Shown here one piece after another: positions 6,831 through 60,495 of a DNA stretch of 64,000 bases. Within the stretch, counting starts at the first letter, position 1. Every line of letters starts with the position of its first letter. This DNA comes from an archaeon (GTDB lineage: Archaea; Hydrothermarchaeota; Hydrothermarchaeia; JALTZZ01), in the NCBI GenBank assembly GCA_027051165.1, contig JALTZZ010000035.1, positions 4,870 through 68,869 of the forward strand, in the 5' to 3' direction. The notes beneath the pieces were generated by a model, which saw only the letters and a program-made list of their open reading frames with translations, was not told the origin of the DNA and ran no database searches. Made by a program: the position numbers and the translations under genes.

Positions 6831-6894
6831 ATTTTTAAAAGAAAATTTTTGACATACATGTAGCATAATTTTTAATCGTGTTTTTTGTAAATAT

Positions 6895-6985
6895 CGGAAT
6901 CAAAGCATCTTACCCATATAAACTCCATACTTTTCGTAGCCGAACTTTCTGTAGTATTCCCTTGTCCCTACGGCACTTGTTACGA
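6895..6985. repeat. Second degenerate copy (~80% identity) of the elp3 3' end (intact at 9775-9860).
   Basis: cttacccatataaactccatacttttcgtagccgaactttctgtagtattcccttgtccctacggcacttgttacga versus cttacccatgtaagccccatatcttctatagccgagctttctgtagtattctcttgttcctacggcacttgttatcag. Confidence 0.6.
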
Positions 6986-6990
6986 TTTTT

Positions 6991-15572: not shown

Positions 15573-15575
15573 AGT

Positions 15576-15854
15576 GTGGCAAGCTATAGAGAGGCTCTTG
15601 AGCTTATAATAAAGAGACAGTTCGGCATCTATGGTCCAGAGAAGGTTATAGAGTTTACAAAAAAGATGGGGGTTGAGGTTGATAAAAAGGGAAGAATTTT
15701 AAAAATGCCAGAAAATGTTGATGAAAAAGAGTTTTTGGTTAAATTTGTCAATGAAATGAAAAAAGAACTTGGAAAATTATCGTTTCTTGCATGTAAAATA
15801 GCTTTAATATATTTTTTCACAAAAAATAAATTAAAGAATCCTTTTGAAAATTAA
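15576..15854 (+). CDS. Small hypothetical protein immediately downstream of the MBL-fold gene.
   Basis: ORF only. Its 3' end overlaps the tldD stop by 4 nt in convergent orientation. No family recognised. Confidence 0.3.
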   Translation: MASYREALELIIKRQFGIYGPEKVIEFTKKMGVEVDKKGRILKMPENVDEKEFLVKFVNEMKKELGKLSFLACKIALIYFFTKNKLKNPFEN

Positions 15855-22767: not shown

Positions 22768-22773
22768 CCTTGA

Positions 22774-24249: not shown

Positions 24250-24262
24250 TGCTTTCTACCCC

Positions 24263-26164: not shown

Positions 26165-26165
26165 T

Positions 26166-26468
26166 TTACCACCTCATCTCCTTTATTTTACCAACGTTGA
26201 GCGTTAGATAATTTCTATATATCATCATTACAATTGCAAGACCCACCGCAGCTTCTGCAGCCGCTATTATTATTGTAAACAGCACAAAGACGTTCCCTGT
26301 TATATCACCCATGTATCTGGAGAATGCTATAAAATTCAAATTTGCAGAGTTAAGCAGTATTTCAACACCCATAAGTATCCTTATCATGTTTCTTGTCGTC
26401 AGTATCCCGAACACGCCTATTGAGAAGAGTATGAGCGAGAGCATAATATAGCTTGACAGCGGAACCAT
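26166..26468 (-). CDS. nuoK: Complex I-like subunit K.
   Basis: 100 aa with 3 TM helices, with position in the operon consistent. Confidence 0.8.
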   Translation of the reverse strand: MVPLSSYIMLSLILFSIGVFGILTTRNMIRILMGVEILLNSANLNFIAFSRYMGDITGNVFVLFTIIIAAAEAAVGLAIVMMIYRNYLTLNVGKIKEMRW

Positions 26469-26475
26469 ACCCCTT

Positions 26476-26958
26476 TCACCCCCTCCTCCTTGCTAAATAT
26501 ATGGCACCTATCATCGCTGCAAGTAAAAGAAAGCTCGCTGCTTCAAATGGTATTACATACGTCTGGAAGAGCTTTGTCCCAACGCTCGCACCAGTTGCAG
26601 AGAACTCTTTTTCTGGCACGTATTTTTCCCATGTATGCTTCGCTAAGTAAAAGAGCGATAGAACGACAAACGCTATAAGGGCAACAGCTCTCGATGTCGT
26701 TACCTCAGATACCGATGGCTCTCTTTCCTTTGTAAGCATTATTGCGAAGAGTATTAACACAAGAACGCCACCAGCATATACAAGTATCTGGACTGCGGCT
26801 ATAAACTCTGCGTTCAGCATTGCAAAGAACATAGCCATTGTGACCAAGAGTAGACTTAAGGAAAGTGCACCCCTAAATATATTCTTCGATAAAAACACAA
26901 ATAAACTTGAAACAACGGCTATAACGCTGAGGATTAAAAACATTATTAAATCTTTCAT
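26476..26958 (-). CDS. nuoJ: Complex I-like subunit J.
   Basis: 160-aa membrane subunit between nuoI and nuoK. Confidence 0.75.
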   Translation of the reverse strand: MKDLIMFLILSVIAVVSSLFVFLSKNIFRGALSLSLLLVTMAMFFAMLNAEFIAAVQILVYAGGVLVLILFAIMLTKEREPSVSEVTTSRAVALIAFVVLSLFYLAKHTWEKYVPEKEFSATGASVGTKLFQTYVIPFEAASFLLLAAMIGAIYLARRRG

Positions 26959-27423
26959 TTATACCTCCTCCCTTGTTTTTGCAAGATCTTCATATGTTTT
27001 TAAAAGTTCTTCCCTTGTATAACCAGCCATTTCATAATTTCTCGTAAGCTTAATTGCTTTTGTTGGACAGTTCTCCTCGCAGAGACCGCAGAACATGCAT
27101 CTACCAAGATAAACATTTGGATGCTTCTTTGGTTTTTTAACAACCTTGCCGCTCTTTAGTTTTGTTTCTATAACACCAGCGGTGACCATCTCTATAGTTT
27201 TGTTTGGACATACCCTTGCACATGTGCCGCAGCCTATACATTTGTTTAAATCAAGCTTGTGCATGCCTATGGAATGACTTGGTAAAGTAAGCCTCTCCTC
27301 CGGATACTGAACGGTAATTGGCTTTATAAATAAATGCCTAAATGTAATGGAGAGGGGTATTATGTGCAGAACTCTTATAATTTTTCTTAATACACCCATA
27401 TCTTCTTCACCCCACCACAGCAA
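26959..27423 (-). CDS. nuoI: Complex I-like subunit I (2x[4Fe-4S] ferredoxin).
   Basis: CIGCGTCARVCP and CMFCGLCEENCP. Confidence 0.9.
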   Translation of the reverse strand: MLWWGEEDMGVLRKIIRVLHIIPLSITFRHLFIKPITVQYPEERLTLPSHSIGMHKLDLNKCIGCGTCARVCPNKTIEMVTAGVIETKLKSGKVVKKPKKHPNVYLGRCMFCGLCEENCPTKAIKLTRNYEMAGYTREELLKTYEDLAKTREEV

Positions 27424-28489
27424 CAGCTACTGCGGTTATTCCAAGATTTATAAGAGCTAATGGTAGTAGATACTTCCAGTAAAATGTTGGAATACTGTGG
27501 AGCCTTGCCCTCGGAAGTGTCATTCTTATCCACATTAAAACAAACATTATTGCAAGAGCCTTAGCAACTATTACGCCGAACTGAATAGCCCATTTAACTA
27601 CTGTATATGCAAAGCCTGATAGGAAGTTCTCAAGGAAGCTGAGAACGTATCCAAGCCCAGGAAGATGCCAACCTCCAAAGAACAGGAGAACGGCGAGCAT
27701 GCTTCCGAATACCATGTGAATGTATTCGGCAAACAGCAGCATTGCAAACTTCATTCCACTATATTCCGTATGAAAGCCAGCTATGAGCTCAGACTCGCTT
27801 TCCGGCATGTCAAACGGTATTCTCGACATCTCTGCAATGCTCGCTACGAAGAATACAAAGAATCCAAGAGGTTGCAGAATTATAATCCACTTTGGTATTA
27901 TGCCGAAGATATATTCGGTCTGATACTTTACAATATCAAAGACGTTTAGAGAGCCGACAACAAGGACAACACCCATTATGCTGAGCACAAGCGGTATCTC
28001 GTAGCTTAAATTTAGAGCCGCAGCCCTCATCGCTCCGAGCAAAGAGTATTTGTTGTTGGATGCCCACCCAGCCATTATTACTGGAATTATCGAGAGGCTT
28101 GCTAATGCGATTATGTAGAGGAGAGCAACGTTTAAATCTGCTAATATAAGACCATCCGCAAGTGGCATTGCTGCAAAGGGAAGAACGGCAAATGCAAATG
28201 CAAATACTGGGGCTAACGTAAATATCAATCTATCAGCAGCATAAGGTATAATGTCCTCTTTCTGTATAAGCTTTGCACCATCCGCAAGCGGCTGAAGCAG
28301 ACCATAGGGTCCAGTTCTGTTTGGACCATATCTGACATGTATTCTTGCGGCAACCTTTCTTTCAACCCAAGTAAGGAAGAGGACCATTAAAGATGCATAA
28401 AGAATTATAAAAAGACCTACTACTACACCCTTTGATATTCCAAGCAGTATTTTATTCGACATTATGTAGTCCACGAGCTCAGCTACCAT
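27407..28489 (-). CDS. nuoH: Complex I-like subunit H.
   Basis: 360-aa polytopic NuoH-type protein, with position in the operon consistent. Confidence 0.85.
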   Translation of the reverse strand: MVAELVDYIMSNKILLGISKGVVVGLFIILYASLMVLFLTWVERKVAARIHVRYGPNRTGPYGLLQPLADGAKLIQKEDIIPYAADRLIFTLAPVFAFAFAVLPFAAMPLADGLILADLNVALLYIIALASLSIIPVIMAGWASNNKYSLLGAMRAAALNLSYEIPLVLSIMGVVLVVGSLNVFDIVKYQTEYIFGIIPKWIIILQPLGFFVFFVASIAEMSRIPFDMPESESELIAGFHTEYSGMKFAMLLFAEYIHMVFGSMLAVLLFFGGWHLPGLGYVLSFLENFLSGFAYTVVKWAIQFGVIVAKALAIMFVLMWIRMTLPRARLHSIPTFYWKYLLPLALINLGITAVAVAVVG

Positions 28490-28495
28490 TTCGCA

Positions 28496-29647
28496 TCACC
28501 TATCTATATCCCCCATAACGATATCTATGCTTGCAAAGCTTAGCAGAAGATCCGGTATAAGCAGATTCTTGTTAAAATGTGGAAAAGCTGCTAAATTTGC
28601 AAAAGCCGGTGTTCTAAACTTAATTCTATACGGTTTATCGCTTTTTCCATCACTTATCAGATATACAGCCAGCTCTCCTCTTGGGGATTCTACCCTTGCA
28701 TACACCTCTCCAGCAGGAGGTTTTATAACCTTAGGAACCTTAGCCCTAATCTCACCATCTGGCAATTCTCTTAAAGCCTGTCTAACAATTCTTATGCTCT
28801 CCTTTATCTCATCAATCCTCACCATTACCCTTGCGTAAACATCCCCTTCTTTTCTTGTCACAATGTCAAAATCGAATCTATCATATATACAGTATGGATC
28901 TACCTTTCTTATATCATAAGCTACGCCACTTGCCCTTAAATTTGGTCCTGTTAATCCAAGGTTAATAGCCTCTTTTGCACTCACCTTTGCAACGCCCTGA
29001 AGTCTGTCAAGTAGTATTTCGTTCTCATTAATGTAGTTTTCATAATCCACAAGCCTCTTTTCTATAATATTAAGCGTTTTTTTACACTGCTCTACAAATT
29101 TTTCGCTAACATCTCTTTTAACACCACCAATTCTCATGTATGAATATAGAAACCTTGCACCAGACATCTCCTCAAGCAGATCAAGAACCATCTCTCTTTC
29201 TCTAAACCCATACATCATTATTGTCCAAGAGCCAAAATCTGCTCCAAATGTTGCAATAAATATAAGGTGACTCGCAATTCTCTGCAGTTCTGCGGCGATT
29301 ATTCTCAAGTAGTTGGCTCTCTCTGGAACTTCAATGCCCATAAGTTCTTCAACTGCAAGACAGTAAACAAGATTGTTGTTCATCGCAGAAAGGTAGTCCA
29401 TCCTATCCGTTATCGGTATTATCTGCGGATAAGTTCTGTTTTCACATATTTTCTCAACGCCTCTATGAAGGTAACCTATTACCGGAATAATTTCTTTAGC
29501 CCTTTCACCTTCAAGCTTTAAAACAAGCCTGCAAACGCCATGGGTGCTTGGATGATGAGGACCCATATTTAATATCATTTCACCGTCTTTTTCCTCAACT
29601 TCTAAACCTTCAATATTGTATTTCATTTCATCACCCCTTCTTCTCAA
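28496..29647 (-). CDS. nuoD: Complex I-like subunit D (49 kDa, NiFe-hydrogenase large-subunit-like).
   Basis: GPHHPSTHGV and RIEGHL-like motifs. Length is 383 aa. Confidence 0.9.
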   Translation of the reverse strand: MRRRGDEMKYNIEGLEVEEKDGEMILNMGPHHPSTHGVCRLVLKLEGERAKEIIPVIGYLHRGVEKICENRTYPQIIPITDRMDYLSAMNNNLVYCLAVEELMGIEVPERANYLRIIAAELQRIASHLIFIATFGADFGSWTIMMYGFREREMVLDLLEEMSGARFLYSYMRIGGVKRDVSEKFVEQCKKTLNIIEKRLVDYENYINENEILLDRLQGVAKVSAKEAINLGLTGPNLRASGVAYDIRKVDPYCIYDRFDFDIVTRKEGDVYARVMVRIDEIKESIRIVRQALRELPDGEIRAKVPKVIKPPAGEVYARVESPRGELAVYLISDGKSDKPYRIKFRTPAFANLAAFPHFNKNLLIPDLLLSFASIDIVMGDIDR

Positions 29648-30095
29648 ACCACTGTGCTGGCGTGAGCTTGAAATCCTTTCTTAGCGGAAAGCCTTTGAAG
29701 TCATGTGGCAAAAGTATTCTTCTCAAATCCGGGTGCCCCTCGTATACTATCCCCATCATATCGTAAGCTTCTCTCTCAAACCAGTCAGCGGCTTTCCATA
29801 TAGAATAGACACTCTTTATCTTTGGATCATCCTTCGGTATTATCGCTTTTATCTGAACGAGAACCCTTGTTTTTGCATTGAAGATGTGGTAAACACTTTC
29901 AAATCTGTCTTCATAGTCAACGGCACTTATGCATGAGAGGTATTCATATCCATTTTCATAGAGGTATTTACATACCTCGTATATATCATCTCTATTTATC
30001 GTTATAACAACTCTCCTCGCCCTTTGAATCTTTGCATCAAGTATTTTTTCACCAAACTTCTCCTTTAGCTGATTTATAATTTTATCTTCTTCCAT
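29631..30095 (-). CDS. nuoC: Complex I-like subunit C (30 kDa).
   Basis: 154 aa, in the position of the 30-kDa subunit. Confidence 0.8.
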   Translation of the reverse strand: MEEDKIINQLKEKFGEKILDAKIQRARRVVITINRDDIYEVCKYLYENGYEYLSCISAVDYEDRFESVYHIFNAKTRVLVQIKAIIPKDDPKIKSVYSIWKAADWFEREAYDMMGIVYEGHPDLRRILLPHDFKGFPLRKDFKLTPAQWFEKKG

Positions 30096-30107
30096 ACTTT
30101 TACCTCT

Positions 30108-30590
30108 CTATCTCTTTATCTCCCCTCTCCTTATTTTTTCTTGAAGCTTTATTATTCCGTATATAAGCCCCTCTGGTCTTGGTGGGCAACCGGGAACATA
30201 GACGTCTACGGGAATTATCTTATCAACTCCATCCACAACGCTGTAGCTATCGTAAAACGGACCACCGCTTATTGCACACTCTCCCATTGCGATCACGTAT
30301 TTCGGCTCCGGCATCTGCTCATAAAGACGTCTAACAAGAGGTGCCATCTTCTTCGTAACTGTTCCGGCGACTATCATTAAATCTGCCTGCCTCGGACTCG
30401 CTCTGAACAACATTCCAAAACGCTCGAAAGCATCAAAACGCGAGCAACCTGTAGCCATCATTTCTATAGCACAGCATGCTAAACCAAAGGTTAGTGGCCA
30501 CATTGCTCTTATTCTTGCCTCTCTTAATATGAACTCTTCAAGGAAATCCTTAATTTTTTGAAGGCTTAGCGTTAGTATTATAGGCTCCAT
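30108..30590 (-). CDS. nuoB: Complex I-like subunit B (20 kDa, N2-cluster subunit).
   Basis: [10 protein letters not shown], GxCAISGG and GCPPRPE motifs. Confidence 0.9.
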
Positions 30591-30596
30591 ATGTTT

Positions 30597-30962
30597 TTAC
30601 CTCCATTCAAGTGCTTTCTCACGCCAAGCATATATCAAGCCAAGGGCTAAGACGACAATGAATATTATACCCTCGATAAGCAGCAGCGTTATGTTGCCGA
30701 AACTCTTGAAGATCTCTGCCCATGGAAAGAGAACAACGGCTTCAACATCGAAGACCACGAAAAGCAGTGCAAAGAGGTAATACTGCACATCATAAGGTTT
30801 TCTCGCATCGCCGAAGGGAATAAGCCCGCATTCGTAGGTTAAATATTTATCTGGTTCCGGCTTTGTAGGTCTCAAAAGCCTTGATAGCAGAAACGTTATA
30901 ACGGGAAACACCATCGCAATTAAAGCAAACACCCCAATGGCTATATACTCCCCCGTTAGCAT
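30597..30962 (-). CDS. nuoA: Complex I-like subunit A.
   Basis: 121 aa with 3 TM helices and the YECG motif. It is the first gene of the operon. Confidence 0.85.
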   Translation of the reverse strand: MLTGEYIAIGVFALIAMVFPVITFLLSRLLRPTKPEPDKYLTYECGLIPFGDARKPYDVQYYLFALLFVVFDVEAVVLFPWAEIFKSFGNITLLLIEGIIFIVVLALGLIYAWREKALEWR

Positions 30963-32452: not shown

Positions 32453-33592
32453 ATGGATTTTGAAATATATAAAATCATGTTTGACGTAGCTATAGTAGGT
32501 GGGAGCTCGACAGGCTTGATAGCTGCGAGAGAGCTCTCAAAGCATGGTTTAAGAGTGTGCGTCCTTGAAGAGCATGAAATAGGTGAAGTAGTATGCTCTG
32601 GGCTGATAAGTGTAAACGGTGTTAAGGAGCTTGGTATAAAGCCGGAGAACGTTGAAAATATAATAAGAGGTGTGAGATTTGTATCTCCGAGCAATGTTGA
32701 AATATATGCACATTCAAATATAGACAGGGCTTTTGTAGTTAATAGGGGGCTCTTCGACAGGCAGATTGCTGAGGAAGCTCTTTCAAGCGGAGCTAAGATA
32801 TTTGAGAAATTTAGAGCTAAAAAAATAGCTTTTAAAAATGATTATGTTGATATTAACGGTGAGATAAGGGCTAAGATTGTTCTCGGCTGCGATGGTTTAA
32901 AAAGCATTGTTGCAAGAGCGTGCTCTTTAAATCCTCCGAGAAGAGTTGTTGCCTCTGCAAAAGCAGTATTTAAAAACGCAGACTACCTTCAAGAAGATGT
33001 TGCAGAAGTCTATTTTAGGGATTATGCCAAGGGATTTTTTGCATGGATTCTGCCAAGGGGAAAATGTGTTGAAATAGGTGTGGGTGTTAGAAAAGCTAAT
33101 TTAAGACTTGCATTAGAGAGATTTCTTAAGGAGAGGGGCTTAGAATTAAAGAGCTTTCAAACAGGGGCTTTTCCAGTGGAAGTCGTCTCGGATACGTGTG
33201 GATATAGGGCTATGATCGTTGGGAACTCTGCCGGACAAGTTAAGGCAAGCACCGGAGGAGGTGTTATTACCGGCGGCATCTGTGCAAAAATTGCGAGTAA
33301 AGCATGCCTTAAGTCCTTGGAAGAGGATAAATTCGATAAAGACTTTTATAAAAAGAATTACGAAGATATTTGGAAAAAAAGCCTTCTAAGGGAGTTCTAT
33401 GCACATATTATAATAAGGGAGCTCTATGAAAGGCTCGATAAGCACAGCCTCGATGCCCTTTTTAAAATAGCGAGAGAAGAGGGGATAGATAAGATAATGA
33501 TAAAATATAGAGACACAGACAAACCTTCAAAATTTTTAGATGAGATAATGAAAAAAGAAAAAATTATTTCATTTCTTTCGCAGTTTATTTAG
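32453..33592 (+). CDS. Geranylgeranyl reductase family FAD-dependent oxidoreductase (digeranylgeranylglycerophospholipid reductase-like).
   Basis: FDVAIVGGSSTGLIAAREL dinucleotide fold, with GCDG and GNSAG motifs. Start is possibly ATG 32477. Confidence 0.85.
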   Translation: MDFEIYKIMFDVAIVGGSSTGLIAARELSKHGLRVCVLEEHEIGEVVCSGLISVNGVKELGIKPENVENIIRGVRFVSPSNVEIYAHSNIDRAFVVNRGLFDRQIAEEALSSGAKIFEKFRAKKIAFKNDYVDINGEIRAKIVLGCDGLKSIVARACSLNPPRRVVASAKAVFKNADYLQEDVAEVYFRDYAKGFFAWILPRGKCVEIGVGVRKANLRLALERFLKERGLELKSFQTGAFPVEVVSDTCGYRAMIVGNSAGQVKASTGGGVITGGICAKIASKACLKSLEEDKFDKDFYKKNYEDIWKKSLLREFYAHIIIRELYERLDKHSLDALFKIAREEGIDKIMIKYRDTDKPSKFLDEIMKKEKIISFLSQFI

Positions 33593-36500
33593 TTCCTGTT
33601 TATCCTTATCCATACAACCTTTCTCTTTCCGGGCTCTGCTTTTATAGTAACTGTCTTTTCTAAGAGTTTTTCTTCAAATAAGTCAGGATCGAGCCACCTT
33701 GCCTTTACTGTTATTTCTTTATCTCTAATTTTAAATACACCATAGTTCTTTGTTCCTTTTGATTTAACAAGCATTGTTTTTGAGTATTTATTGACGAATA
33801 CGTCAACGTAGAGATCATCGTCGTCCAAATTTTCAACTATCACCTCTACTTCTGTTGGCAGTATATCCGCAAATATCTCGCTTATCTGCCTCTTCGCAGT
33901 GTCGCTTATATCAACGGCTATTATTTTTATCGGCTTTCTGCTCTTATCCACTCTATTATCTTTGAGAAACCCTAAAACACTTTTCGGAACACTGTCTTTA
34001 ACGTATATTATAGGTGCATTCATGTATTCGGATATCAAAACTGCTCTGGTGCTTATGTTTCTTCCATCAGTTACAACAATAACCTTTAGATCAAGCTTCT
34101 TCTTTTTGTAGGCTTTTGCAAGCTCTACCGCAGTTTCGTATCTCGTTTCGCCCCAAATTCTCTCAACCTCATACCTCTCTCTTAAATAGTTCTCTACTTC
34201 TTTTGATATAGCTTTTTCTCCGCCAACGATAATTACCTTCATTGGAGATATCTCATCTATTGCAAGCAGTGCACTTGAAACAAGCTCATCTGGCTTCGTA
34301 AGTATTATAGGATATCTGCTTATTTTTGCAAAGGCTATTGCAGCTACGGCATCTGCGGGTATATCCCCCCTTGCAAGAACTACAGTTCCAGAGTATCTGA
34401 ACTTCTCCAAAATCATCTTATTTGCAACCTCGTAGACATCTCCATCAATTTCTATAATATCCTTGGCTTCTATTCCTTCCGCAAATACAGGCTTATCCAT
34501 AAGAGCTAATATTGGATAGACACTTATTGGAGCTTTATAGAAAGTCTTATCCTCAAGTTTGTATTCCTTAATAAACAATTTCATGAACTTCGCATTTACG
34601 GTATTAATGCCACTCTCCACGGTAAATTCCTCTATTTTTCTCGGAGCTGGAGCTGCACCTCCTCCGCCTCCTCCACCAACTGCTGGCTGATAGCCCGAAA
34701 TAGCTACGGTTATACTCTTAGACACCTTTTCAGCATTTATACACGAAGCTTCTGCAGTAAAGGTTACGCTATTCTCGTTTGGAAGGTTAACTGTAAAGTT
34801 TATTGTTTTTGTCGTTTTTGGCTGAATATCTGTTGATTGAGCACCAAAGTTTATAAGCTTTATATAACATTCTTTTGCAATTTCACTTTCAATGTTTTCT
34901 ACATTTACGCTCACAACAACGCTTTCTCCTACCTCGAGCTTCCCATAAACGTCAATTTTTGTTATGTTAATTTTCGTATGGTTTAATACATGCAATCCCA
35001 CACTTTCGTTTGTTTCGTTTGCGTTGCTTGCATTCACCTTGAACAATAACGTATAGTTTCCTCTGCTTGCGAAAATTAGGCTAAATGTTTCATTCCAGCT
35101 TTCAAGGTAATCAAGCTTATCCAAGTGTCTACTCTCGTTTTTAACACCTGATACAAGAGATAGGGTCAAATTCTTTGCACTTGAATTTCCACCATTTTTA
35201 ACGATAATACCCATATTCAAGCTCTTATTTACAACCCAGTATTTTGGTGCATCTACATATATTATAAGCCATGGCTCATTTGAGTATACGATTGTTATGT
35301 TTGTGCTTGCATGCACAGTGTAGCTTCCCCTTATTATCTCTCCCCCAATCGCTCTCTCTATTAAATAGCTTAGGGTTGCGTTTATAGTATAGTTTCCAGT
35401 CCAGTTTGCTTTAAGTGTGAATTCCTCAACATAGCTCCCTATGCTCAGCTCGCCCAAGCTCTTTGATGTATTCTCTCCGCTGATGTTGCTTGGTAATATA
35501 ATTTCAATTGTTGCATTTTTTATTCCGATATTACTTACATTTATATAAGCCTTTAATCTAAAATCAGCATTAACCGGATACTTTTCTGGTGCTTCTATGC
35601 TTAGATTTACATTTGGAACAACAACCACATTTCCACCACTTGGATCTATTGTTATGTTGTTGTATAAAAGCCTAACGTTAAATCCTGAGATAACCCCTGT
35701 TTCGTTTGTAAATGCCGTCCAGTTTACGGTTATCGTCTCGTTGGGGGATAGAATCTTTGGAGTGGTAAACTTAACCTGATCGTATATGTAGACAAATTTA
35801 TCCTTCGGCGGTATAAGGGTTACGTTCATTATACTTACATTCCTGTTTTCTTTGTTTGTGATGTTCACTTTAACTGTGAAGTTTACGAATGGATAGACAA
35901 CGCTCGGCTCTACCGCTATTGTTCCTTTAACAACCCCTGGGACTATTTCAATCGTCTTGCTGAACTCCTTGGATATTCCTCCATAGCTAACCTTAGCCAC
36001 TACTGTATAATTGCCCAGAGGTATCGGATTCTGGTTGTGATCTCCTACTATCCATGTAACCTCATAGTCCATTTCTCCGTTCAGCGGTGTGTTCTCAAAC
36101 CTCAAGTTCGGATTTTCCTCCGGATTAAATATCTTATAGAGAGTTCCTCCTCTTGTAATAGAAATTGTTATGTTTCCGTAGTTTATGGTGGTGTAGCCTT
36201 CGTTTTTAAGTTTAACTTTTATATCAGCAGCCTCACCATTTATAAGGCTCTGATTTATTATTATATCTACGATGCTCAGATTTACGATCTCTATACCTTT
36301 TGTTATGTAGTCAACGACATTGTTGCCTTCAACAAGCTTTGCTCTAAGCGTATATGCTCCAGTTGGCAGATAGTAGCCGGCTATTCTTCCGTCCCAAGAA
36401 TACTCCTTATAAACGCTTCCAAGGATGTTGAAGTTCTCCTCAGCTATAATTCCTATTGTGCTGTTTGTGGAGTTTAGAATCTCTAAAACAAGCTTCACAT

Positions 36501-39500
36501 TCTTCTCAGTTTCCGAGAACATGTTTATGTATATCTTCATTGCTACACCGTATGCAAGCTCGCTTAAGCTCGTTCTCATGCTCGATATCCCTATAGGCTT
36601 CTCAGAAACGTTTATAAACATTTCTTTTTCTGCAGAGGATATTCCGTATTTGAGCTCTACTTTTATTCTATATACTCCGGGGGAATCAAATGTTATCAAA
36701 AATCCTTCTCTTTTAGTTGAATAGCTCGGCATCTTAACAGCTTTTGTTTCTACATTCGTGCACGTTATGTTGCAGACGTATAGAGAGAGGTTCGCATCAA
36801 GCTCTGGTGCAATGTTTATCAGGGTAACGTTTACCTCTGTGCTCATGTTTACAAAAGTCTTTTCCGGCATGTCTATTGACAGTATTCCAGCTCTCTCCAA
36901 GATAATATTTTTTCCTCCCTCAAGCACCGTTGTATATGATTCGTTTGCATCCGCATATTTAAGCTCATATTCTATAACGTTTGCACCATGGCTTCCGTTT
37001 ATCAGACTTTCCAGTTTCCAGAGCTTTGATATGTTATAAACCTCATCCTCATGCAGATATCTATTCAGTATTACTGTTCCCTCGGAGCCCGGCTGTATGT
37101 CTGTGAAGAATTTAACCCTGTATGCAAGTTCCTTGAGCTTAACGGTGCTGTTAGCACTTATTGAGAAGTTTATGTATATGCTTTCGCCGGGATAAGCAAC
37201 TCCTTTTGTGTTTACTTCAACATCTATCAGGTGCTCAAATCTAAGCTTTGCATACTTCCAAACATCTTTACCATCTATGCTCGCAGATACCTCAAGTATT
37301 ACATCCCCCTCTTCTATAGCAACGCTCTTCAGCTCAACGTATCCCTCGTATAGCCCGCTTAAGTAATTGTTCTCGCTAAGCGTTCCTTCAGCAATTATCC
37401 TTCCTTTGCCGTCCCATATCTTATAGCTTACGCTCTTTCCAGATAATAAATTGTTTGTAGTCATGTTTCTAAGATAAACAGCAATAAGCATTCCATTTCT
37501 TAAAATATCTTCACTTTCAGGTTCTTTAAATTCTATAAAAGCTGGAGATACGAGTATATCATCAAAGTAAACAGCATCGTTGAAGTATACCTTAACTCTA
37601 ACTCCGTCTGAGCTGTATAGATCGCTCCACTTCGGATTTGTTATGTCCTTTATTATATCTATGAAGCCGTTTCTGTAGCTTTTGTTATATACCGTAATAT
37701 TTTCTGAGTTTTCTGCAAGTAATCCTTCTTCTATAAAGACAAACACACCTCTATTTTTATCCAGCACCCTTCTTACCTTATAAAGCTCAGCTTTTATCTC
37801 ACCAGTAATATCAATGTCTTGCATATTAACCGCTGTGTAGTTTATTCTGAATCTGTTTTTTTGCTCAATAACGCTGTTGTATAGATCTTCCTTAAAGACT
37901 TTTACTCCGTTTACATATATATCAAATCCTGCAAGCTTTATTTCAGGATATACCTTCAAGACTTTCTCAAATGTGAATGTTACAAATTTGAGGTTGTCTG
38001 GATTTATATATGACACATTAACAACAAACGTGTAGTTCTTTGCATCTGGATCTATTGTAAGGTTTTCTCCAGAGAATATTGTAGTTGTAGGCTTGCCGTA
38101 TCTCCTCAGCGATATTTCACTCCATGAAATGTTTTTAACGTTCTCAACACCGTTTTTAAACACCTCTACAGATATGTTTACCGTTATGTTGAAGTATCCT
38201 AAGTTTATCACGTAGGGAACTATGGTTACATTTCCGCTCTCGTTTGAAACTTCCTTAACTGCTAAATTATCCTTTGTTACAAGCAGATCAACCGTGATCG
38301 GATTTACATAAAACATCTTCATAAATTCTGGTAGAATGTGGTCTACTGTAGCTCCTCTTGAATTTTCTATTTCAAAATATGGATTTCTGTATTTTATCCT
38401 TATAAAGACGCTATGATTCTGATCTATTATCGAATTCGCAGTATCCCATACAAACGTGAAGAACTCAGTTGTATTCGGCTTTATAAGCTTTTCATCCGTT
38501 GAAAACTCAAGCGTTCTTCCGCTTCTATCAACAACCTGATATATTATTGATGCATTTAAGCCGAGGAAGTATGCTAAGCATGTAACGTTACTCGTCTCTA
38601 CCCTGTTCTTGACCTCTAAGCTGAAGCTGTTCTTATCTCCGTAGTTAACAAATTTCTTTTCCATGCTAAATGATAGAAGCTCCACCGGGTGGAGTATCGT
38701 TATCTCCTTAGGATAGCTTATCCCTATTAAGCTGTTCTTGTAGTATACGTATGCATAGAGCGAGAAGTTACCTTCTACATAGTATGGTATATTTGGTATT
38801 ATATCGGTCTTATACCATAAACCGTCTTTGTATACGGCATCTACTTCATAGTATATTATGTTATTCTTTATTACCTTAAACGTTACCTTGTAATCCTTTG
38901 GATCTGAAACGTTGCGGAAATAAGTATAGGTTACCTTTTCTCCGGGTATATAGTAGCTTAAACATGAGAACATTCTTTCAACGATCTCAGCTGTTGTTTT
39001 TAATCCCTTAACAACCGTAAGCGTGCCGCCAAATCTATACGATGCTCTTCCATCGTAGCTAAGGTTTGCAGCTATGCTATAAGTTCCGCTCGCCAAAGCT
39101 AAAGAAAATTCATGTTCCGTAACAGAAAATGCTGGAAGGATTACGTTTCTTTCTCCATGAGAAGATGAGTTAACGTATAGAGTGAGCGTTGCGTTCATTC
39201 TTTCTCCAATGTTCTTTACTAAAACCTTTATCGTTGCATTGCTTCCCTCCTCAACTCCCTCTGGGATTTCTATTCCTATTATGCCGGCTTTTTCTAAGGT
39301 AAACGTTGTAGTGTTTTCAATTGTGTAATTTATTCCGTCTCTTTCAAATATTACGTAGGCAACTATTGTATTTATTCCGTAGGTTCCGTATCTCGCATTC
39401 TCAGCGTTCCAAGGTGAAATTTCTTTCAAAACGCTCTTATTAATCTGGAGAAATTCATCAACCGTAATGCTGTAGCTGCTGTTCACCTGCTCATAGCCGC

Positions 39501-40401
39501 GCCAGAATATTCCAGACCTTCCGTAGCCTACTATGTGCAGATCAAAGTTAGCGACGTTGGTAACGTTTATTATCGTAGCAACATCATCACCTGGGTAGCA
39601 AGACGTGCAGTTCGTGGAAATCAGGAGTTCTATCGGGCTTCTCACGTTTATATTTATTTCATCGCTTCCGAAGAAGACGCCTCTGCTTGTGTATGCCTTT
39701 ATTGTTAGCGAGCCTACTGAGTATTCGTTGTCAAGTGCTACGACAACGCTTGCGTTTCCGCTTGCATCTGTTGTGGCGTATAGAGTTTCTACGCCCGTAT
39801 CGAAGGTTACGTTGAAGCCAGAAGCATTGGTTCCGTTTCCATATTCTACGTGAGCTGTAAGCGTTATATTATCGCTTAGGAACGGCAAGGAGTTGCTCAC
39901 ATATAGCTCAAGCACGAGGTTGGCTACGGTTAAGTTTCTATCAGAAAATCTGCTTGCGTTCTCGCTTGCATAGCTTAAGTTTGCTAAGATAGCGTAGACT
40001 CCAGCACCTAATTCGCTCGTGTTGAACTCCACTTCTACGTTCTTCTTGGAGAATCCGCCTATCGTTGTTTGGGAGCTGTATATTCTGTGCCACGTTCCGT
40101 TGAATGCGTATAGCGTTAGGTTTGCATTCTGAGCAGCGCCGAGGTTTGTAATGCTTATGCTGGCTGTAACGTTTTCTCCGAGTTTAACAGCATGCTCGCT
40201 CAGCTTGACGCTTTCTATTCCGATCTGCTCCAAAATAAAGCTTGTTTCGTTTTCTATGCTGTATTCAGTATCTCCCGTCCTGTTGACGCTTCTGAAGAGT
40301 ATCTTAACCTTAGCCACGTTTGTTCCGTTTGTTCCCATTTCAGCTAAGCTTGTGTTCCATGAGCCTATGCTTATAGATAGGCTTTCACCAGGCTTTAGCA
40401 A
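33589..40401 (-). CDS. Giant (2270 codon) secreted surface protein. It has multiple CARDB/Ig-like beta-sandwich repeats, dense N-x-S/T sequons, a Gly7-Ala-Pro linker and three C-terminal CWB2-like cell-wall-binding modules. It is in frame with, and probably the continuation of, the 40420-43422 ORF.
   Basis: Internal repeats (e.g. three blocks ...E.G.I.I..PE....N.T..V...N......A.L.LY). C-terminus VIIVGGEKAISKEVENYL...ERIWGETRYETAVELAK. The ORF-track start is a TTG with no obvious ATG or promoter. Confidence 0.85.
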   Translation of the reverse strand: MLKPGESLSISIGSWNTSLAEMGTNGTNVAKVKILFRSVNRTGDTEYSIENETSFILEQIGIESVKLSEHAVKLGENVTASISITNLGAAQNANLTLYAFNGTWHRIYSSQTTIGGFSKKNVEVEFNTSELGAGVYAILANLSYASENASRFSDRNLTVANLVLELYVSNSLPFLSDNITLTAHVEYGNGTNASGFNVTFDTGVETLYATTDASGNASVVVALDNEYSVGSLTIKAYTSRGVFFGSDEININVRSPIELLISTNCTSCYPGDDVATIINVTNVANFDLHIVGYGRSGIFWRGYEQVNSSYSITVDEFLQINKSVLKEISPWNAENARYGTYGINTIVAYVIFERDGINYTIENTTTFTLEKAGIIGIEIPEGVEEGSNATIKVLVKNIGERMNATLTLYVNSSSHGERNVILPAFSVTEHEFSLALASGTYSIAANLSYDGRASYRFGGTLTVVKGLKTTAEIVERMFSCLSYYIPGEKVTYTYFRNVSDPKDYKVTFKVIKNNIIYYEVDAVYKDGLWYKTDIIPNIPYYVEGNFSLYAYVYYKNSLIGISYPKEITILHPVELLSFSMEKKFVNYGDKNSFSLEVKNRVETSNVTCLAYFLGLNASIIYQVVDRSGRTLEFSTDEKLIKPNTTEFFTFVWDTANSIIDQNHSVFIRIKYRNPYFEIENSRGATVDHILPEFMKMFYVNPITVDLLVTKDNLAVKEVSNESGNVTIVPYVINLGYFNITVNISVEVFKNGVENVKNISWSEISLRRYGKPTTTIFSGENLTIDPDAKNYTFVVNVSYINPDNLKFVTFTFEKVLKVYPEIKLAGFDIYVNGVKVFKEDLYNSVIEQKNRFRINYTAVNMQDIDITGEIKAELYKVRRVLDKNRGVFVFIEEGLLAENSENITVYNKSYRNGFIDIIKDITNPKWSDLYSSDGVRVKVYFNDAVYFDDILVSPAFIEFKEPESEDILRNGMLIAVYLRNMTTNNLLSGKSVSYKIWDGKGRIIAEGTLSENNYLSGLYEGYVELKSVAIEEGDVILEVSASIDGKDVWKYAKLRFEHLIDVEVNTKGVAYPGESIYINFSISANSTVKLKELAYRVKFFTDIQPGSEGTVILNRYLHEDEVYNISKLWKLESLINGSHGANVIEYELKYADANESYTTVLEGGKNIILERAGILSIDMPEKTFVNMSTEVNVTLINIAPELDANLSLYVCNITCTNVETKAVKMPSYSTKREGFLITFDSPGVYRIKVELKYGISSAEKEMFINVSEKPIGISSMRTSLSELAYGVAMKIYINMFSETEKNVKLVLEILNSTNSTIGIIAEENFNILGSVYKEYSWDGRIAGYYLPTGAYTLRAKLVEGNNVVDYITKGIEIVNLSIVDIIINQSLINGEAADIKVKLKNEGYTTINYGNITISITRGGTLYKIFNPEENPNLRFENTPLNGEMDYEVTWIVGDHNQNPIPLGNYTVVAKVSYGGISKEFSKTIEIVPGVVKGTIAVEPSVVYPFVNFTVKVNITNKENRNVSIMNVTLIPPKDKFVYIYDQVKFTTPKILSPNETITVNWTAFTNETGVISGFNVRLLYNNITIDPSGGNVVVVPNVNLSIEAPEKYPVNADFRLKAYINVSNIGIKNATIEIILPSNISGENTSKSLGELSIGSYVEEFTLKANWTGNYTINATLSYLIERAIGGEIIRGSYTVHASTNITIVYSNEPWLIIYVDAPKYWVVNKSLNMGIIVKNGGNSSAKNLTLSLVSGVKNESRHLDKLDYLESWNETFSLIFASRGNYTLLFKVNASNANETNESVGLHVLNHTKINITKIDVYGKLEVGESVVVSVNVENIESEIAKECYIKLINFGAQSTDIQPKTTKTINFTVNLPNENSVTFTAEASCINAEKVSKSITVAISGYQPAVGGGGGGGAAPAPRKIEEFTVESGINTVNAKFMKLFIKEYKLEDKTFYKAPISVYPILALMDKPVFAEGIEAKDIIEIDGDVYEVANKMILEKFRYSGTVVLARGDIPADAVAAIAFAKISRYPIILTKPDELVSSALLAIDEISPMKVIIVGGEKAISKEVENYLRERYEVERIWGETRYETAVELAKAYKKKKLDLKVIVVTDGRNISTRAVLISEYMNAPIIYVKDSVPKSVLGFLKDNRVDKSRKPIKIIAVDISDTAKRQISEIFADILPTEVEVIVENLDDDDLYVDVFVNKYSKTMLVKSKGTKNYGVFKIRDKEITVKARWLDPDLFEEKLLEKTVTIKAEPGKRKVVWIRINRN

Positions 40402-40419
40402 GATGTCTCTAGTCTTGAG

Positions 40420-43400
40420 CTACTCGTCATATCTCTGGGCTAAGTATCCTTGCCAGTATATGCCAGATATCTCGGATCTGTCTATCTTAACCGCAAAGGG
40501 AGCGATGTTCCTTATGGTTGCGTTTATATTTACCGTATCTCCCGGCTCGTATCTGCTCCTATCAGTCCTTACTAAAACCTCTACAGGACTTCTAACCGTT
40601 ATTGTTGTTTCATTAGCACCGTAGTAGATACCAGAGGAAACCTCAGCTCTTACTCTTAAACTGCCCGTTTCATTTAAAATGACTGTTATCTTAGCCACTC
40701 CGCTTGAGTTTGTGAAGTTCTCATATACATCGCTATCTAAATAGAACTTTACAGATGTGTTATTTAAAGGAGTGCCGTTTGCATATCTAACCTCTGCAAG
40801 AGCTGTTAACCTCTCGCTGAGGAAGAATTCATTATCAACTCCTGTTTCGTTTAATGTTAGCAGATTAACGATTATATTGTTAACATGCACACTTGTTGTT
40901 TTCGTTGAATTTCTGAAAGCACCGAATTCAAACCATGCTTTTATAACCTTGTTTCCAGCTTCACTACAGCTTACGTTAAAGCTTACCTCCTTATAATAAT
41001 CAACTTCAACGTTCTTTGTCCAGCTACTGCCGCAGAAGCTGAGCGTCAGATTTCCAGTAACGTTTGTCAAGCTCTGAAGAGAAACTGTAACATTAAAGTC
41101 TTCATCTATCTTAACATACTTAGGTGAGCTTATATTTACTATGCCAGCTTCCCATATCCATATTCTCTCTGTAGATTCTGTTACTGCCGATTTTCCAGAA
41201 GTTAGATTCTGGTATTTAATCTCAACTACTACATCGTTGTATCCCTGAGTGCCGTTTATAAGATTTAAAACTTCCCAAGGAACCTCTATTCTCTCGCTTG
41301 TTCCATTTGCAATAAATTTATTTAAAGATATATTTAAAGGTAAGAACAGCTCTTTTCCCTGCTTTAACACCTTCAATGTTAATTTTTCCAGCCACAGACT
41401 TTCATCGGTAGGATTTGAAATTAATACACTTATATTTGCTGTTTCCCCAAGATAATATGAAAGTTTATCCGTTGAAACATCAGCACTTATTGGATGATCA
41501 AAGAACAGTCTTAGATGCTTCCAAAATTTACCATTTTTCTCTTTAATTTTTAGATAAACAAACCCTTCCTCTGCCGGAATCTCCTTATTAAATGAAATCT
41601 CACTGTAATACAACCCGCCCAAATCTTTAAGATCTCCCTCTGCTATAACTCTTCCTTCAGAATCCCAGACAAGATACTCTAAATTGTAACCACTTTCTGG
41701 CGTGTAATCATTGTCATTTACTATCTTCGTATAATTTCTTACATAAAGACTTATGTAGTTTTTAGATAGATTAAGCTCGGCAGGATAACTCTCAAAATCT
41801 ATGAAAAGATTCTTGTATGACCTCTCATCTAAGAGCGTATAATTTTCAAATGAAAAGTTTAATTTAACAATAAATACATCAGAATCGTAGATAACCTTAG
41901 GATTGATCTCTTCTTTGTATAAAATTACCTTATCCGTGAAGTTCCCCTGATTAACCGTTACTGGTTTTGTATAGTTTACGACATAAACACAGTTGCCTAC
42001 TAAAAAAGTTCCGTTCTGCGACTTTAACAGCTTGCACGATCTTATCTCTACAGTTAAATTTCCTTCTTTGCTGCTTCCGAGGTTTTCTATAGAGTAGTTA
42101 ACACTGAAGGTGCTTTTTCTCTTATAAATGTCATTTTCTGAGAAATCTTCAACGGAATAGTCAAATCTATTTATTTCAATTCTCATGTCCGCTGGCTTTA
42201 CATAAGAATAAACAAGAAGGGTTTTGTTGAGTGTAAAGCTTACAAGACTTTGATTAGCCTCAGGATCAGGGTTTATGTATGTAACGTTTACTTCCAGCGT
42301 ATAGTTCTTTGCATCTCCATGAAGTGAAAAGTTTTTACCCTCAAAAATCGTTAACTTTGGTATTCCATAGCGCCTTTCAGCCGTGCTGTTTATCCATGTT
42401 ACATTCCCTATGTAAAATATTCCAGAATTGTTATATTTGTAAATATTAACTGTAATGTTCATTGTTACGTTATAAAATCCTATATTGTTGACATAAGGAC
42501 GTATTGTAACATTTTCACCGGTTTTATTTGGAACACTTTCAACTTCTATATTCTTATAAAATGCCTTTATATCAACACTGATTGGATTAATATAAAATGT
42601 TTTTGTGAAATTGTAGATAAGGGTGTTGTTGTCTTGGAAAGCCTTATCCGCACCGTATACAGATGAACCCTTGCTGTTCCCGATTTCCAAATATACGTTC
42701 TCATAGTTTATTCTTATAGCTATGGTGTGGTTCTGATCTATCTGCGCATTATATGTGCTCCAATTAAATTTGAAGAACTCTGTTGTATTGGGTTTTATTG
42801 GTCTCAATTCTGTAGTATAATTTCGAATTCTACCCATTCTATCCACAATTTCATACTCTATGGTTACATTTAATCCTAAATGATACCCCAAACAGGTTGT
42901 ATCGTTTGTGTATGCTTTGTTTTTAACTACAACCAAGAATTCATTAGTTTCTCCGTAGTTAAGCGTTTTCTTTGACATGTTGAATTTTAAAAGTTCTACA
43001 GGATGCTCTATTCTTATCACTGTTGTATTTAATGATTCGGATGTGCTATTTTTAATCACTGCCTCCAAAATGAAATCACCTTCAATGTAGTATGGTATAT
43101 TCGGTATCTCTCCACTATAGAACCAAACACCCTTATTCTCATCATATTCCGCTGGATACTCATAGGTAAGCCATGTTCCATGAATAAGATCGAATTTCTT
43201 TATTATAAACTCTACAGTATATCCCCCTGACGGAGGTGATGCATTTACCTCTAATCGAACATTTTCACCGGGAACGTAAAATCCAAAAGCGGGATTGCAT
43301 GCGAATTGTCTTGCAGATATGTAGGGTTCATTTATATACATGGCATGCACATTAGCTATGAGAAGCATTATAGCAAAAAATATGAATAATATGGTAATGT

Positions 43401-43422
43401 TTATACTTCTCCCCTTTTCCAT
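40420..43422 (-). CDS. 1000-codon paralogous surface-protein ORF with an N-terminal signal/TM segment. It terminates at the TAG complement of 40420-40422, immediately followed in frame by the 2270-codon ORF.
   Basis: Signal peptide MEKGRSINITILFIFFAIMLLIANVHA. Shares ~400 aa of blocks with the downstream ORF (IPNIPYY.EG.F, HPVELL.F.M.KK.NYG, KPNTTEFF.F.W, IDQNH...IRI.Y.N.Y.EI.NS.G, DAKNYT..VNV.YINPD). Confidence 0.85.
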   Translation of the reverse strand: MEKGRSINITILFIFFAIMLLIANVHAMYINEPYISARQFACNPAFGFYVPGENVRLEVNASPPSGGYTVEFIIKKFDLIHGTWLTYEYPAEYDENKGVWFYSGEIPNIPYYIEGDFILEAVIKNSTSESLNTTVIRIEHPVELLKFNMSKKTLNYGETNEFLVVVKNKAYTNDTTCLGYHLGLNVTIEYEIVDRMGRIRNYTTELRPIKPNTTEFFKFNWSTYNAQIDQNHTIAIRINYENVYLEIGNSKGSSVYGADKAFQDNNTLIYNFTKTFYINPISVDIKAFYKNIEVESVPNKTGENVTIRPYVNNIGFYNVTMNITVNIYKYNNSGIFYIGNVTWINSTAERRYGIPKLTIFEGKNFSLHGDAKNYTLEVNVTYINPDPEANQSLVSFTLNKTLLVYSYVKPADMRIEINRFDYSVEDFSENDIYKRKSTFSVNYSIENLGSSKEGNLTVEIRSCKLLKSQNGTFLVGNCVYVVNYTKPVTVNQGNFTDKVILYKEEINPKVIYDSDVFIVKLNFSFENYTLLDERSYKNLFIDFESYPAELNLSKNYISLYVRNYTKIVNDNDYTPESGYNLEYLVWDSEGRVIAEGDLKDLGGLYYSEISFNKEIPAEEGFVYLKIKEKNGKFWKHLRLFFDHPISADVSTDKLSYYLGETANISVLISNPTDESLWLEKLTLKVLKQGKELFLPLNISLNKFIANGTSERIEVPWEVLNLINGTQGYNDVVVEIKYQNLTSGKSAVTESTERIWIWEAGIVNISSPKYVKIDEDFNVTVSLQSLTNVTGNLTLSFCGSSWTKNVEVDYYKEVSFNVSCSEAGNKVIKAWFEFGAFRNSTKTTSVHVNNIIVNLLTLNETGVDNEFFLSERLTALAEVRYANGTPLNNTSVKFYLDSDVYENFTNSSGVAKITVILNETGSLRVRAEVSSGIYYGANETTITVRSPVEVLVRTDRSRYEPGDTVNINATIRNIAPFAVKIDRSEISGIYWQGYLAQRYDE

Positions 43423-43513
43423 GATTATATCAAGACACTCTGCATGATATATAAATCTTATCTTTTTTCAGTTTAAAATTTGAATGTTGCAAAATGTATA
43501 ATTATGAAGTTTT

Positions 43514-60223: not shown

Positions 60224-60495
60224 AAAACATAACTCTGCAGTCAAGTATTAAATCTTTATCCTTCCAAGTGCACGTGCGTGAGAAGACTATGGTTAAAGGT
60301 GTTGACACAACAATGAACATAATGGTATGTCTGCTCAATTTGTTACCGATATTTGGCTACCCTATGAAAACGCTTATCTTATCGGTGCTTGTAAGACCCC
60401 TTTCATGAAGTTTAAACTTCTTTAAATAGCTGCTCGAAGCTTTTGAAAACCTACGCATGCAAGCCACAACAGTTTTATAGGCTGGTTATAAATTA

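Follow-up and report, generated by a model that had tools for sequence, protein, structure and literature searches.

The 64,000-nt stretch of archaeal contig JALTZZ010000035.1 analysed here (the window) carries on its minus strand a giant gene, 33589..43422, which is recorded as two adjacent open reading frames (ORFs) of 1,000 and 2,270 codons. The two are one gene with large internal duplications, cut in the middle of a domain by a TAG codon. Taken as a whole, we consider it likely that this single giant gene encodes a surface protein with a C-terminal anchor of the CWB2 type and that the copy present here is interrupted. That reading starts from direct observations on the continuity of the gene, its domain map, the excess of N-glycosylation sequons, the CWB2 homology, the distribution of the family and the sharing of the anchor cassette. 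The anchor is an archaeal variant of the known CWB2 anchor, and the interest of the case lies mostly in the pattern seen across the anchor family rather than in the broken gene.

One gene with a single in-frame TAG

The elements that define the gene are as follows.

33589..43422, minus strand: whole reconstructed gene (shared frame, one internal stop, blastp alignment to homologue P0002 crossing the stop)
40420..40422, minus strand: in-frame TAG, codon 1001, in the middle of beta-sandwich domain C2 (translation and domain alignment)
43447..43456, minus strand: TATA-box-like ATTTATATAT, about 30 nt 5′ of the ATG (sequence reading; putative function)
43342..43422, minus strand: Sec-type signal peptide MEKGRSINITILFIFFAIMLLIANVHA (translation)

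The 2,270-codon frame noted in a preliminary description of this DNA (33589..40401) was confirmed by the ORF list and the translation; it is read on the minus strand. On its upstream side this frame is adjoined by the 1,000-codon ORF (40420..43422, minus strand), in the identical frame. Translation from 43422 to 33589 gives 3,277 sense codons followed by TAA; the single internal stop is the TAG at 40420-40422, in the context ...AQRYDE*LKTRDILLKPGE... Residues termed fused below are numbered along this reconstructed 3,277-aa protein. The public gene calls hold it as two entries, P0051 (1,000 aa) and P0001 (2,270 aa).

The TATA-like element, the ATG and the signal peptide are found only in front of the 1,000-codon part. 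The position of ATTTATATAT suggests a candidate short-leader or leaderless transcript, and nothing comparable was found before the 2,270-codon part, whose listed start, TTG 40401, is the first TTG after the TAG, six codons on. No Shine-Dalgarno (SD)-like sequence, promoter, start context or signal peptide was found at this TTG. In hydrophobicity windows, the signal peptide is the sole hydrophobic stretch of the whole 3,277 aa. The protein therefore has neither a C-terminal transmembrane (TM) segment nor a PGF-CTERM sorting motif, and falls outside the archaeosortase class.

When domain C2 is aligned with three paralogous units and with three units of P0002, the domain runs through the stop position, and the invariant W and G..G residues sit 3′ of the TAG in all seven aligned units. 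In the AlphaFold2 (AF2) model of the paralogous block B2-C3-D3, the residue equivalent to the TAG (Y153 of the model) belongs to strand four of the C domain. A full-length search with the fused protein returned the protein itself and one homologue of 39% identity, P0002, an uninterrupted protein of 2,746 aa with its own signal peptide. By blastp, residues 25-1108 align with residues 696-1781 of P0002, across the stop; the same search gave no closer orthologue showing a sense codon at position 1001.

Given the shared frame, the confinement of TATA element, ATG and signal peptide to the upstream part and the location of the stop inside a continuous domain, 33589..43422 is a single gene. The preliminary description had instead seen two tandem paralogous ORFs from a recent duplication. 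Two separate genes, the 2,270-codon ORF being independent, would agree with the two public entries, with the paralogy between the upstream ORF and part of the downstream one, and with the rough colinearity of P0002 with the downstream part alone (1061-3140 vs 275-2725), yet we hold this to be highly improbable, the two frames being identical, the TTG merely the first after the stop and devoid of start signals, a beta-sandwich being cut in its fourth strand, and an exported, glycosylated and anchored protein being impossible without a signal peptide. For annotation, this means that the two database entries, of 1,000 and 2,270 aa, each cover a fragment of a single gene.

Significance of the stop codon

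In this genome TAG works as an ordinary stop. Of the 50 other ORFs of the window, 9 terminate with it where the proteins normally end, and directly behind the TAG at 15570-15572 comes GGAGGAG-N6-GTG, with which the next gene starts. If TAG were read as sense, it would merge only the giant gene, an ODP-family gene with the ORF behind it, and NuoB with NuoC; the last two were considered as TAG-fused genes and rejected, being ordinary separate pairs. At the first of these pairs (15563-15578, plus strand), a gene for an ODP-family metallo-beta-lactamase ends in TAG and the GGAGGAG-N6-GTG opens, in the same frame, an ORF of about 92-93 aa. The latter has no Pfam match, and the TAG at this site is a stop with translational coupling.

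The 2,276 codons that follow the TAG in the giant gene are all open, with no decay. A very recent nonsense allele or pseudogene is for this reason the most likely state of the gene, and we lean towards a recent genuine nonsense allele. The copy found here would thus be interrupted and probably non-functional, and the gene as written would yield a secreted fragment of 1,000 aa without the anchor. Two points count against this interpretation of the stop: the undecayed 3′ part fits read-through, polymorphism or an assembly-consensus error as well, and one family of Hydrothermarchaeota is reported to possess machinery for pyrrolysine (Pyl) (PMC9630628; bioRxiv 10.1101/2024.09.30.615893).

Of the other explanations for the TAG, the one that survives best is that it is not fixed, being a minority allele, an on/off variant or a consensus error, so that most cells would carry an intact gene. 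The sequence belongs to a metagenome-assembled genome (MAG), a setting in which giant surface genes made of repeats assemble with difficulty and often show polymorphism. Moreover, a single change turns TAT or TAC into TAG, a paralogue has Y in this column, and the lack of downstream decay would be expected. Two observations speak against it: an independent Logan assembly of SRR10312489 is identical at the TAG (100% over 421 nt), although it may share the same sample, and an exact scan of Joint Genome Institute (JGI) metagenomes gave 0 matches to variants at the TAG. We regard an unfixed TAG as unlikely.

Still less probable, in our view, is that the TAG is decoded, as pyrrolysine or by programmed or leaky read-through, with the full 3,277-aa protein being made. 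The open codons beyond the TAG, with their conserved domain residues, and the Pyl machinery already mentioned speak for it, and low TAG usage is neither required for Pyl decoding nor a hallmark of it (PMC9630628; bioRxiv 10.1101/2024.09.30.615893). Against it stand the use of TAG at the ends of other ORFs of the window, once directly before an SD sequence and a start, and the aligned column at the TAG, which is variable (Y/L/G/V/A) and marks no conserved functional site. No pyl genes or tRNA-Pyl were found within the 64-kb window, which is weak evidence.

A CWB2-type module at the C-terminus

The C-terminal part of the giant protein is composed of the following elements.

34642..34689, minus strand: flexible Gly7 linker QPAVGGGGGGGAAPAP, read at these coordinates
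34447..34623, minus strand: the "prelude", strand-helix-strand-helix-strand (AF2: E16-19, H22-31, E38-41, H44-52, E66-69; predicted local distance difference test, pLDDT, 87-98)
34171..34446, minus strand: CWB2 repeat R1 (best Pfam stretch; alignments to Cwp8, Cwp6 and SlpA)
33871..34170, minus strand: CWB2 repeat R2 (R1 vs R2, hhalign probability 94%, E=1.3e-7)
33592..33870, minus strand: extra C-terminal seven-strand beta-sandwich (DDDDLYV...WLDPD...), about 90 aa (AF2 strands 268-352)

The 355 residues after the linker match CWB2 by Pfam, by phmmer, by a family profile and by fold. PF04122 scores 62.2 bits (cutoff 24.9; E=7e-17) in two stretches, the best of which covers residues 1988-2070 of the 2,270-codon ORF. 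A phmmer search against the PDB finds Cwp8 at 6.7e-14, and with a profile built on nine sequences of the family the values reach 3.3e-35 for Cwp8 and 1.4e-34 for Cwp6. The AF2 model of the anchor (pLDDT 92.2, predicted template modelling score 0.82) has the alpha/beta fold of the solved CWB2 tiles (Cwp8, 5j6q; Cwp6, 5j72; SlpA, 7acy). In the PDB, Foldseek ranks 11 C. difficile CWB2 proteins first (E=4.5e-10 to 1.7e-6, probability 1.0, TM-score normalised to the query 0.39-0.53), with Cwp8, Cwp6 and SlpA-HMW at E=4.5e-10 to 1e-7. A CWB2-like triple module behind a Gly7 linker had been proposed from the sequence alone; the linker is there, and profile search and structure prediction both bear out the family. 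"Triple" is only loosely right, as there are about 2.5 repeats, and the beta-sandwich that had been overlooked occupies the position at which the bacterial relatives have their third repeat.

Each of the two repeats has kept a different part of the canonical sequence. R1 retains ARGD..ADA, PIIL and VGGEKAIS, while its leading G-x-DRY-x-TA helix is degenerate (DGDVYEVA); in R2 the canonical ERIWGETRYETAVELAK and PIIY are preserved and the C-terminal GG..S motif is gone. The PILL motif is thus represented by PIIL in R1 (PILLT in the family) and, only partly conserved, by PIIY in R2 (AP.IYV in the family). Invariant columns of the family alignment fall in R2, and the best-conserved columns of the whole module correspond to canonical CWB2 motifs (ARGD, P-I-L-L-T, GGE.A.S and RI.G.TRYETA).

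The prelude shows no sequence similarity to R1 or R2 (hhalign probability 0.3%), and it was accordingly rejected as a third repeat recognisable by sequence. With the family profile it aligns weakly with the C-terminal half of a Cwp6 repeat, and it probably derives from a third CWB2 repeat of which only the C-terminal half is left. In C. difficile, the CWB2 repeats exchange strands within a pseudo-threefold tile.

Within the family, the terminal beta-sandwich occurs in only about six clusters, and P0002 lacks it. Only P0001, P0172, P0173, P0174, P0176 and P0179 extend over profile positions 290-381. A role of this domain as a carbohydrate or lipid binder was considered and rejected, the Foldseek matches (CBM20, aegerolysin, domain 4 of cholesterol-dependent cytolysins, pVHL) being generic and of low TM-score.

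A duplicated, sequon-rich ectodomain

Self-comparison of the fused protein gives the colinear map SP-[A-C1-D1]-[B1-C2-D2]-[B2-C3-D3]-[A'-C4-D4]-tail-linker-anchor, SP being the signal peptide. Its parts are listed below.

40813..43320, minus strand: super-repeat 1, block A with units C1 and D1 (fused 35-870), colinear with 1480-2272 at 29-45% identity
39931..40812, minus strand: B1-C2-D2, three beta-sandwich domains (fused 871-1164; paralogy with B2-C3-D3, seven-unit alignment)
38998..39930, minus strand: B2-C3-D3 (fused 1165-1475; AF2 and paralogy)
39013-39327, minus strand: repeat "YTIENTTTFTLEKAGIIGIEIPEG..." within B2-C3-D3, quoted in the preliminary description
36607..38985, minus strand: super-repeat 2, block A' with units C4 and D4 (fused 1480-2272; self-similarity, 34% identity to P0002)
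36607-36924, minus strand: third of the quoted repeats, within super-repeat 2 (self-comparison)
34708..36606, minus strand: membrane-proximal "tail" of beta-sandwich-sized units (fused 2273-2905), the part best kept in comparison with P0002
35005..35265, minus strand: CARDB domain PF07705 (38.7 bits, cutoff 22.7), the sole CARDB match above threshold

Residues 35-815 and 1480-2234 are paralogous, with 29-45% identity over about 780 aa and E down to 3e-74, and 904-1159 matches 1218-1464 (B1-C2-D2 against B2-C3-D3) at E=6e-35. The B-C-D units are mutually 30-39% identical. The paralogy to the upstream ORF that had been noticed is therefore real, but the order of the blocks is colinear; it appeared rearranged because a tandemly duplicated gene was cut at an arbitrary point. 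Super-repeat 1 is 33% identical to residues 707-1302 of P0002, and its Pfam matches are weak. Identity to P0002 is 52% and 42% in the tail versus 22-36% in the distal blocks; a variable tip on a conserved base is the usual pattern of surface proteins.

The three repeats of about 105 aa quoted in the preliminary description, where they were given as about 100 aa, correspond to units D2, D3 and D4 and are true paralogues: 1054-1159 and 1366-1464 are 39% identical (E=4e-12), and each of them matches 2167-2266 with E=1e-5 to 1e-9. AF2 supports their description as beta-sandwiches, whereas their assignment to Pfam families stays below threshold (20 bits or less for CARDB, Big_3_5 and DUF11). D3 reaches 19.7 bits for CARDB, below the cutoff, and D1 and D2 reach only Big_3_5/DUF11 at E=0.001-0.02. 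The search with the CARDB and DUF11 profiles thus confirmed one CARDB domain, at 35005-35265, and none of the quoted repeats. For the B units, the scores against Big_1 (PF02369) are 29.9 and 22.9 bits, under the cutoff of 34.9.

The AF2 model of B2-C3-D3 (pLDDT 81.4) consists of three all-beta domains (5-96, 100-212 and 215-307), and the D-type unit is a beta-sandwich with pLDDT >90. Foldseek matches this model, at E about 1e-9, to tandem beta-sandwich arrays, among them macroglobulin (MG) domains of C5 and alpha-2-macroglobulin (A2M), transglutaminase barrels, FN3 and the extender domains of the adhesin MpIBP. Judged by size, the ectodomain of about 2,890 aa may hold roughly 28-30 beta-sandwich domains.

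The ectodomain contains 142 N-x-S/T sequons (x not P), spaced by a median of 14 and a mean of 20 residues. Compared with composition shuffles, the 1,000-aa part has 54 (14.4±3.4 expected) and the next 1,880 aa have 89 (26.1±4.6 expected), an enrichment of 3.4-3.8 times that lies more than 11 standard deviations above expectation. In the other 49 ORFs of the window there are at most 1.2 sequons per 100 aa, which makes the giant protein 4-20 times denser. The anchor is nearly free of them, with one in 355 aa. Seven other members of the family behave alike (3.3-4.9 sequons per 100 aa overall, 0-2 in the last 260 aa). An extreme sequon density had been claimed and the excess is indeed strong, but sequons do not occur every few residues and the anchor has almost none. 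The ectodomain sequons are presumably N-glycosylated.

Distribution of the anchor family

The window is archaeal: it encodes an MCM with the archaeal winged helix, a glycerol-1-phosphate (G1P)-dehydrogenase-like protein, TrmB, subunit DP2 of DNA polymerase D (PolD), a thermosome and a Nuo/Fpo-like operon. Among named relatives, the MCM is closest to those of Hydrothermarchaeota MAGs (52-57% identity); another sequence reaches 75%. To judge by this MCM, the host is an uncultured, Hydrothermarchaeota-like vent archaeon. The earlier view of the product as an archaeal envelope protein accords with the archaeal MCM, G1P-dehydrogenase-like gene and PolD, and with the Ig-like arrays.

We scanned 185,579 species-representative genomes, the scan being limited to a single peptide pattern. 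Archaeal MAGs (Ca. Pyrohabitans, Ca. Hydrothermarchaeum, other Hydrothermarchaeota and unclassified archaea) were the only genomes in which it found modules that include the prelude; there, these modules end secreted proteins of 420-1,200 aa. All other matches of the scan come from Firmicutes and Actinobacteria and begin no earlier than query residue 49, past most of the prelude. In a representative library of 1.84 billion proteins, about 75 of the 150 best clusters have prelude, R1 and R2 as a single stretch at the extreme C-terminus, in proteins of up to 2,477 aa. Each cluster protein examined has a Gly-rich linker before the module; such a run precedes it in P0002, P0192, P0198, P0199, P0203, P0206, P0215 and P0224. 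Most members end directly after R2, with no further tail, and the homologues P0002-P0050 all carry PF04122. The ectodomains of the clusters comprise subtilases, beta-helix proteins, FG-GAP/cadherin-like arrays and an A2M-like protein with the thioester motif GCVEQ.

An identical module of prelude and two CWB2 repeats ends P0192, P0198 and P0191, which are, respectively, A2M-like (GCVEQ), a beta-helix protein and a subtilase. One organism presumably reuses a single anchor on many exoproteins, as in these three.

In the literature, CWB2 is placed in Firmicutes and Actinobacteria only; since the window is archaeal, this is a difference in distribution and not in homology. The open-access literature searched gave no description of CWB2/PF04122 in archaea or of a wall or pseudomurein in Hydrothermarchaeota.

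An anchor cassette shared between unrelated proteins

The anchor of the giant gene lies in the following tract.

33480..34550, no strand assigned: tract 96-100% identical in nucleotides to contig L069, comprising anchor cassette and about 110 nt of the convergent neighbour (blastn and windowed identity)

Contig L069, which stems from another population, is a 3.8-kb scaffold of the European Nucleotide Archive (ERZ23495177), of which positions 2634-3750 match. The cassette of about 1.1 kb is about 98% identical and extends from the middle of the prelude through the stop to about 110 nt into the convergent neighbour. Past this tract, the neighbour gene falls to about 67% nucleotide identity, its last 75 residues being 73% identical in amino acids. 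The protein encoded on L069, P0173, has 1,195 aa with CARDB and CWB2 and is orthologous to Ca. Pyrohabitans proteins of about 1,200 aa; its ectodomain is unrelated to that of the giant protein. As a near-identical cassette joins unrelated ectodomains between diverged flanks, the anchor appears to have been exchanged or homogenised recently between diverged genomes or loci. The fast-evolving envelope locus suggested before gains support from this shared anchor, but not by way of the duplication and shuffling of two ORFs then proposed.

The giant gene is not syntenic among relatives. At the P0002 locus (GCA_054014855.1) the flanking genes are wholly different, and no neighbours from the window were found in the flanks of 14 related archaeal loci. 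In the P0002 genome (contig L002), an ORF resembling a multihaem cytochrome (5922-7625) and a radical-SAM gene of the HMPTM type (4204-5913) precede the giant gene by a few kb.

Proposed mode of anchoring

We propose that the Sec signal peptide at the N-terminus would export the intact 3,277-aa product. Its tandem Ig-like beta-sandwiches, grown by large colinear internal duplications, would reach outward over about 2,890 aa, and this ectodomain with its 142 sequons would presumably be N-glycosylated. Through the Gly7 linker it would be joined to an anchor made of a vestigial half-repeat, two CWB2 repeats and the beta-sandwich. As the protein lacks a TM or lipid-anchor signal and the anchor is homologous to Cwp/SlpA in sequence and fold, we infer that the anchor would hold the protein on some envelope component by non-covalent binding. 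An envelope glycopolymer is the most parsimonious guess for the ligand, to which we give an even chance.

A number of facts weigh against this proposal. Just two repeats are recognisable by sequence, R2 lacking the GG motif and R1 the RY-x-TA motif. No polymer-synthesis genes were found near the giant gene or near the Ca. Pyrohabitans homologue, we know of no wall polymer in this lineage, and the organism is known from metagenomes only. In C. difficile, all three CWB2 repeats and the PILL motif are needed to bind the anionic polymer PSII (PMC4973711), and the sequence here offers two recognisable repeats where that species would need three.

The module could alternatively be derived from CWB2 without binding a wall polymer, and serve to oligomerise or to dock on the S-layer, the membrane or a partner protein. 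The incomplete set of about 2.5 repeats would fit such a function, as would the additions to the module, which are an amphipathic or hydrophobic tail (LPEFL..KLY..) in some members and a beta-sandwich in others, including the giant protein. There is also a precedent, the CWB2 tile of SlpA making lattice contacts as well (PMC8881574). Conversely, conservation is highest at the canonical CWB2 motifs, most members stop right after R2 without any extra tail, and the module is sequon-free across the family, as expected of a ligand-binding face. Docking of this kind is the main rival, and appears less probable to us than binding of a glycopolymer.

The closest parallel to the archaeal anchor is given by the Cwp/SlpA proteins of C. 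difficile. The anchors are homologous in sequence and fold, they stand at one end of otherwise unrelated surface proteins, and in both cases many paralogues share one anchor type, with a variable ectodomain on a conserved anchor. The archaeal proteins differ in that the host is an archaeon without a known wall, the repeats number about 2.5 instead of three, and the module is always C-terminal and always behind a Gly-rich linker. The giant protein, in addition, has the extra beta-sandwich and a far larger, sequon-dense ectodomain. While PSII is the ligand in C. difficile (PMC4973711), that of the archaeal anchor is putative.

In Bacillus subtilis LytC (CwlB) and other autolysins of Firmicutes and Actinobacteria, the CWB2 repeat holds the protein on the envelope (PMC5817068), and matches of this bacterial type fill the lower part of the lists of homologues. 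Unlike the giant protein, these are enzymes, with three to six repeats and without the prelude.

Within the lineage, the closest counterparts of the giant protein are the CARDB and CWB2 proteins of 1,195-1,220 aa (Ca. Pyrohabitans JdFR-16/17, contigs L006 and L007; P0173; P0176). They have the same anchor with the beta-sandwich tail (38-41% identity, about 95% of amino acids for P0173), a signal peptide and sequon-rich Ig-like ectodomains. They differ from the giant protein in having one third of its size, an unrelated ectodomain and conservation across genera. Because they are conserved in this way, they would be more plausible than the giant protein as the main S-layer protein.

With Nitrosopumilus SLP, Haloferax Csg and halomucin, the giant protein has its tandem beta-sandwich arrays in common, and it would also share their Sec export and heavy N-glycosylation. 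Archaeal S-layer and adhesin-like proteins of this kind, however, use a TM helix, lipidation (PGF-CTERM/archaeosortase) or partner proteins for attachment, none of which is seen in the giant protein. Reviews and an S-layer survey likewise describe archaeal surface proteins as held by TM helices, lipid anchors and partner proteins, and the non-covalent binding of CWB2 to wall polymers is described in reviews for Gram-positive bacteria only.

A broader suggestion, which we put forward tentatively, is that Hydrothermarchaeota-like and other vent archaea run a Cwp-like display system in which dozens of unrelated exoproteins are presented on an interchangeable CWB2 cassette of Gly linker, half-repeat and two repeats. 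The cargo would include a candidate S-layer protein, giant Ig-like proteins, subtilases, beta-helix proteins and an A2M-like thioester protein. Recombination would keep the cassette near-identical, even where the neighbouring genes are only about 70% identical. Such a system would imply a ligand in the archaeal envelope resembling a secondary cell wall polymer that has so far gone unrecognised, and a conserved, recombining CWB2-type cassette on proteins of vent archaea would in itself point to such an envelope component. The module of 265-355 aa is of a size that could be expressed, and might serve as a ligand probe or display tag.

Other genes of the window

The minus-strand region 21370-30962 contains a complete-looking operon for a complex I of the Nuo/Fpo type, with no obvious NuoEFG. 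The following genes were confirmed by Pfam.

30597-30962, minus strand: NuoA
30108-30590, minus strand: NuoB
29631-30095, minus strand: NuoC
28496-29647, minus strand: NuoD
24263-26164, minus strand: NuoL

The 406-aa ORF at 7761-8981 (minus strand) has no Pfam match at E<=1e-4. At 6991-7691 on the same strand, two small ORFs of 127 and 106 aa overlap; from their appearance they may be a toxin-antitoxin pair of HEPN and minimal nucleotidyltransferase. The genes for DP2 of DNA polymerase D (55433-60244, minus strand) and for ribonucleotide reductase (17258-20623, minus strand) each contain an intein with a LAGLIDADG endonuclease.

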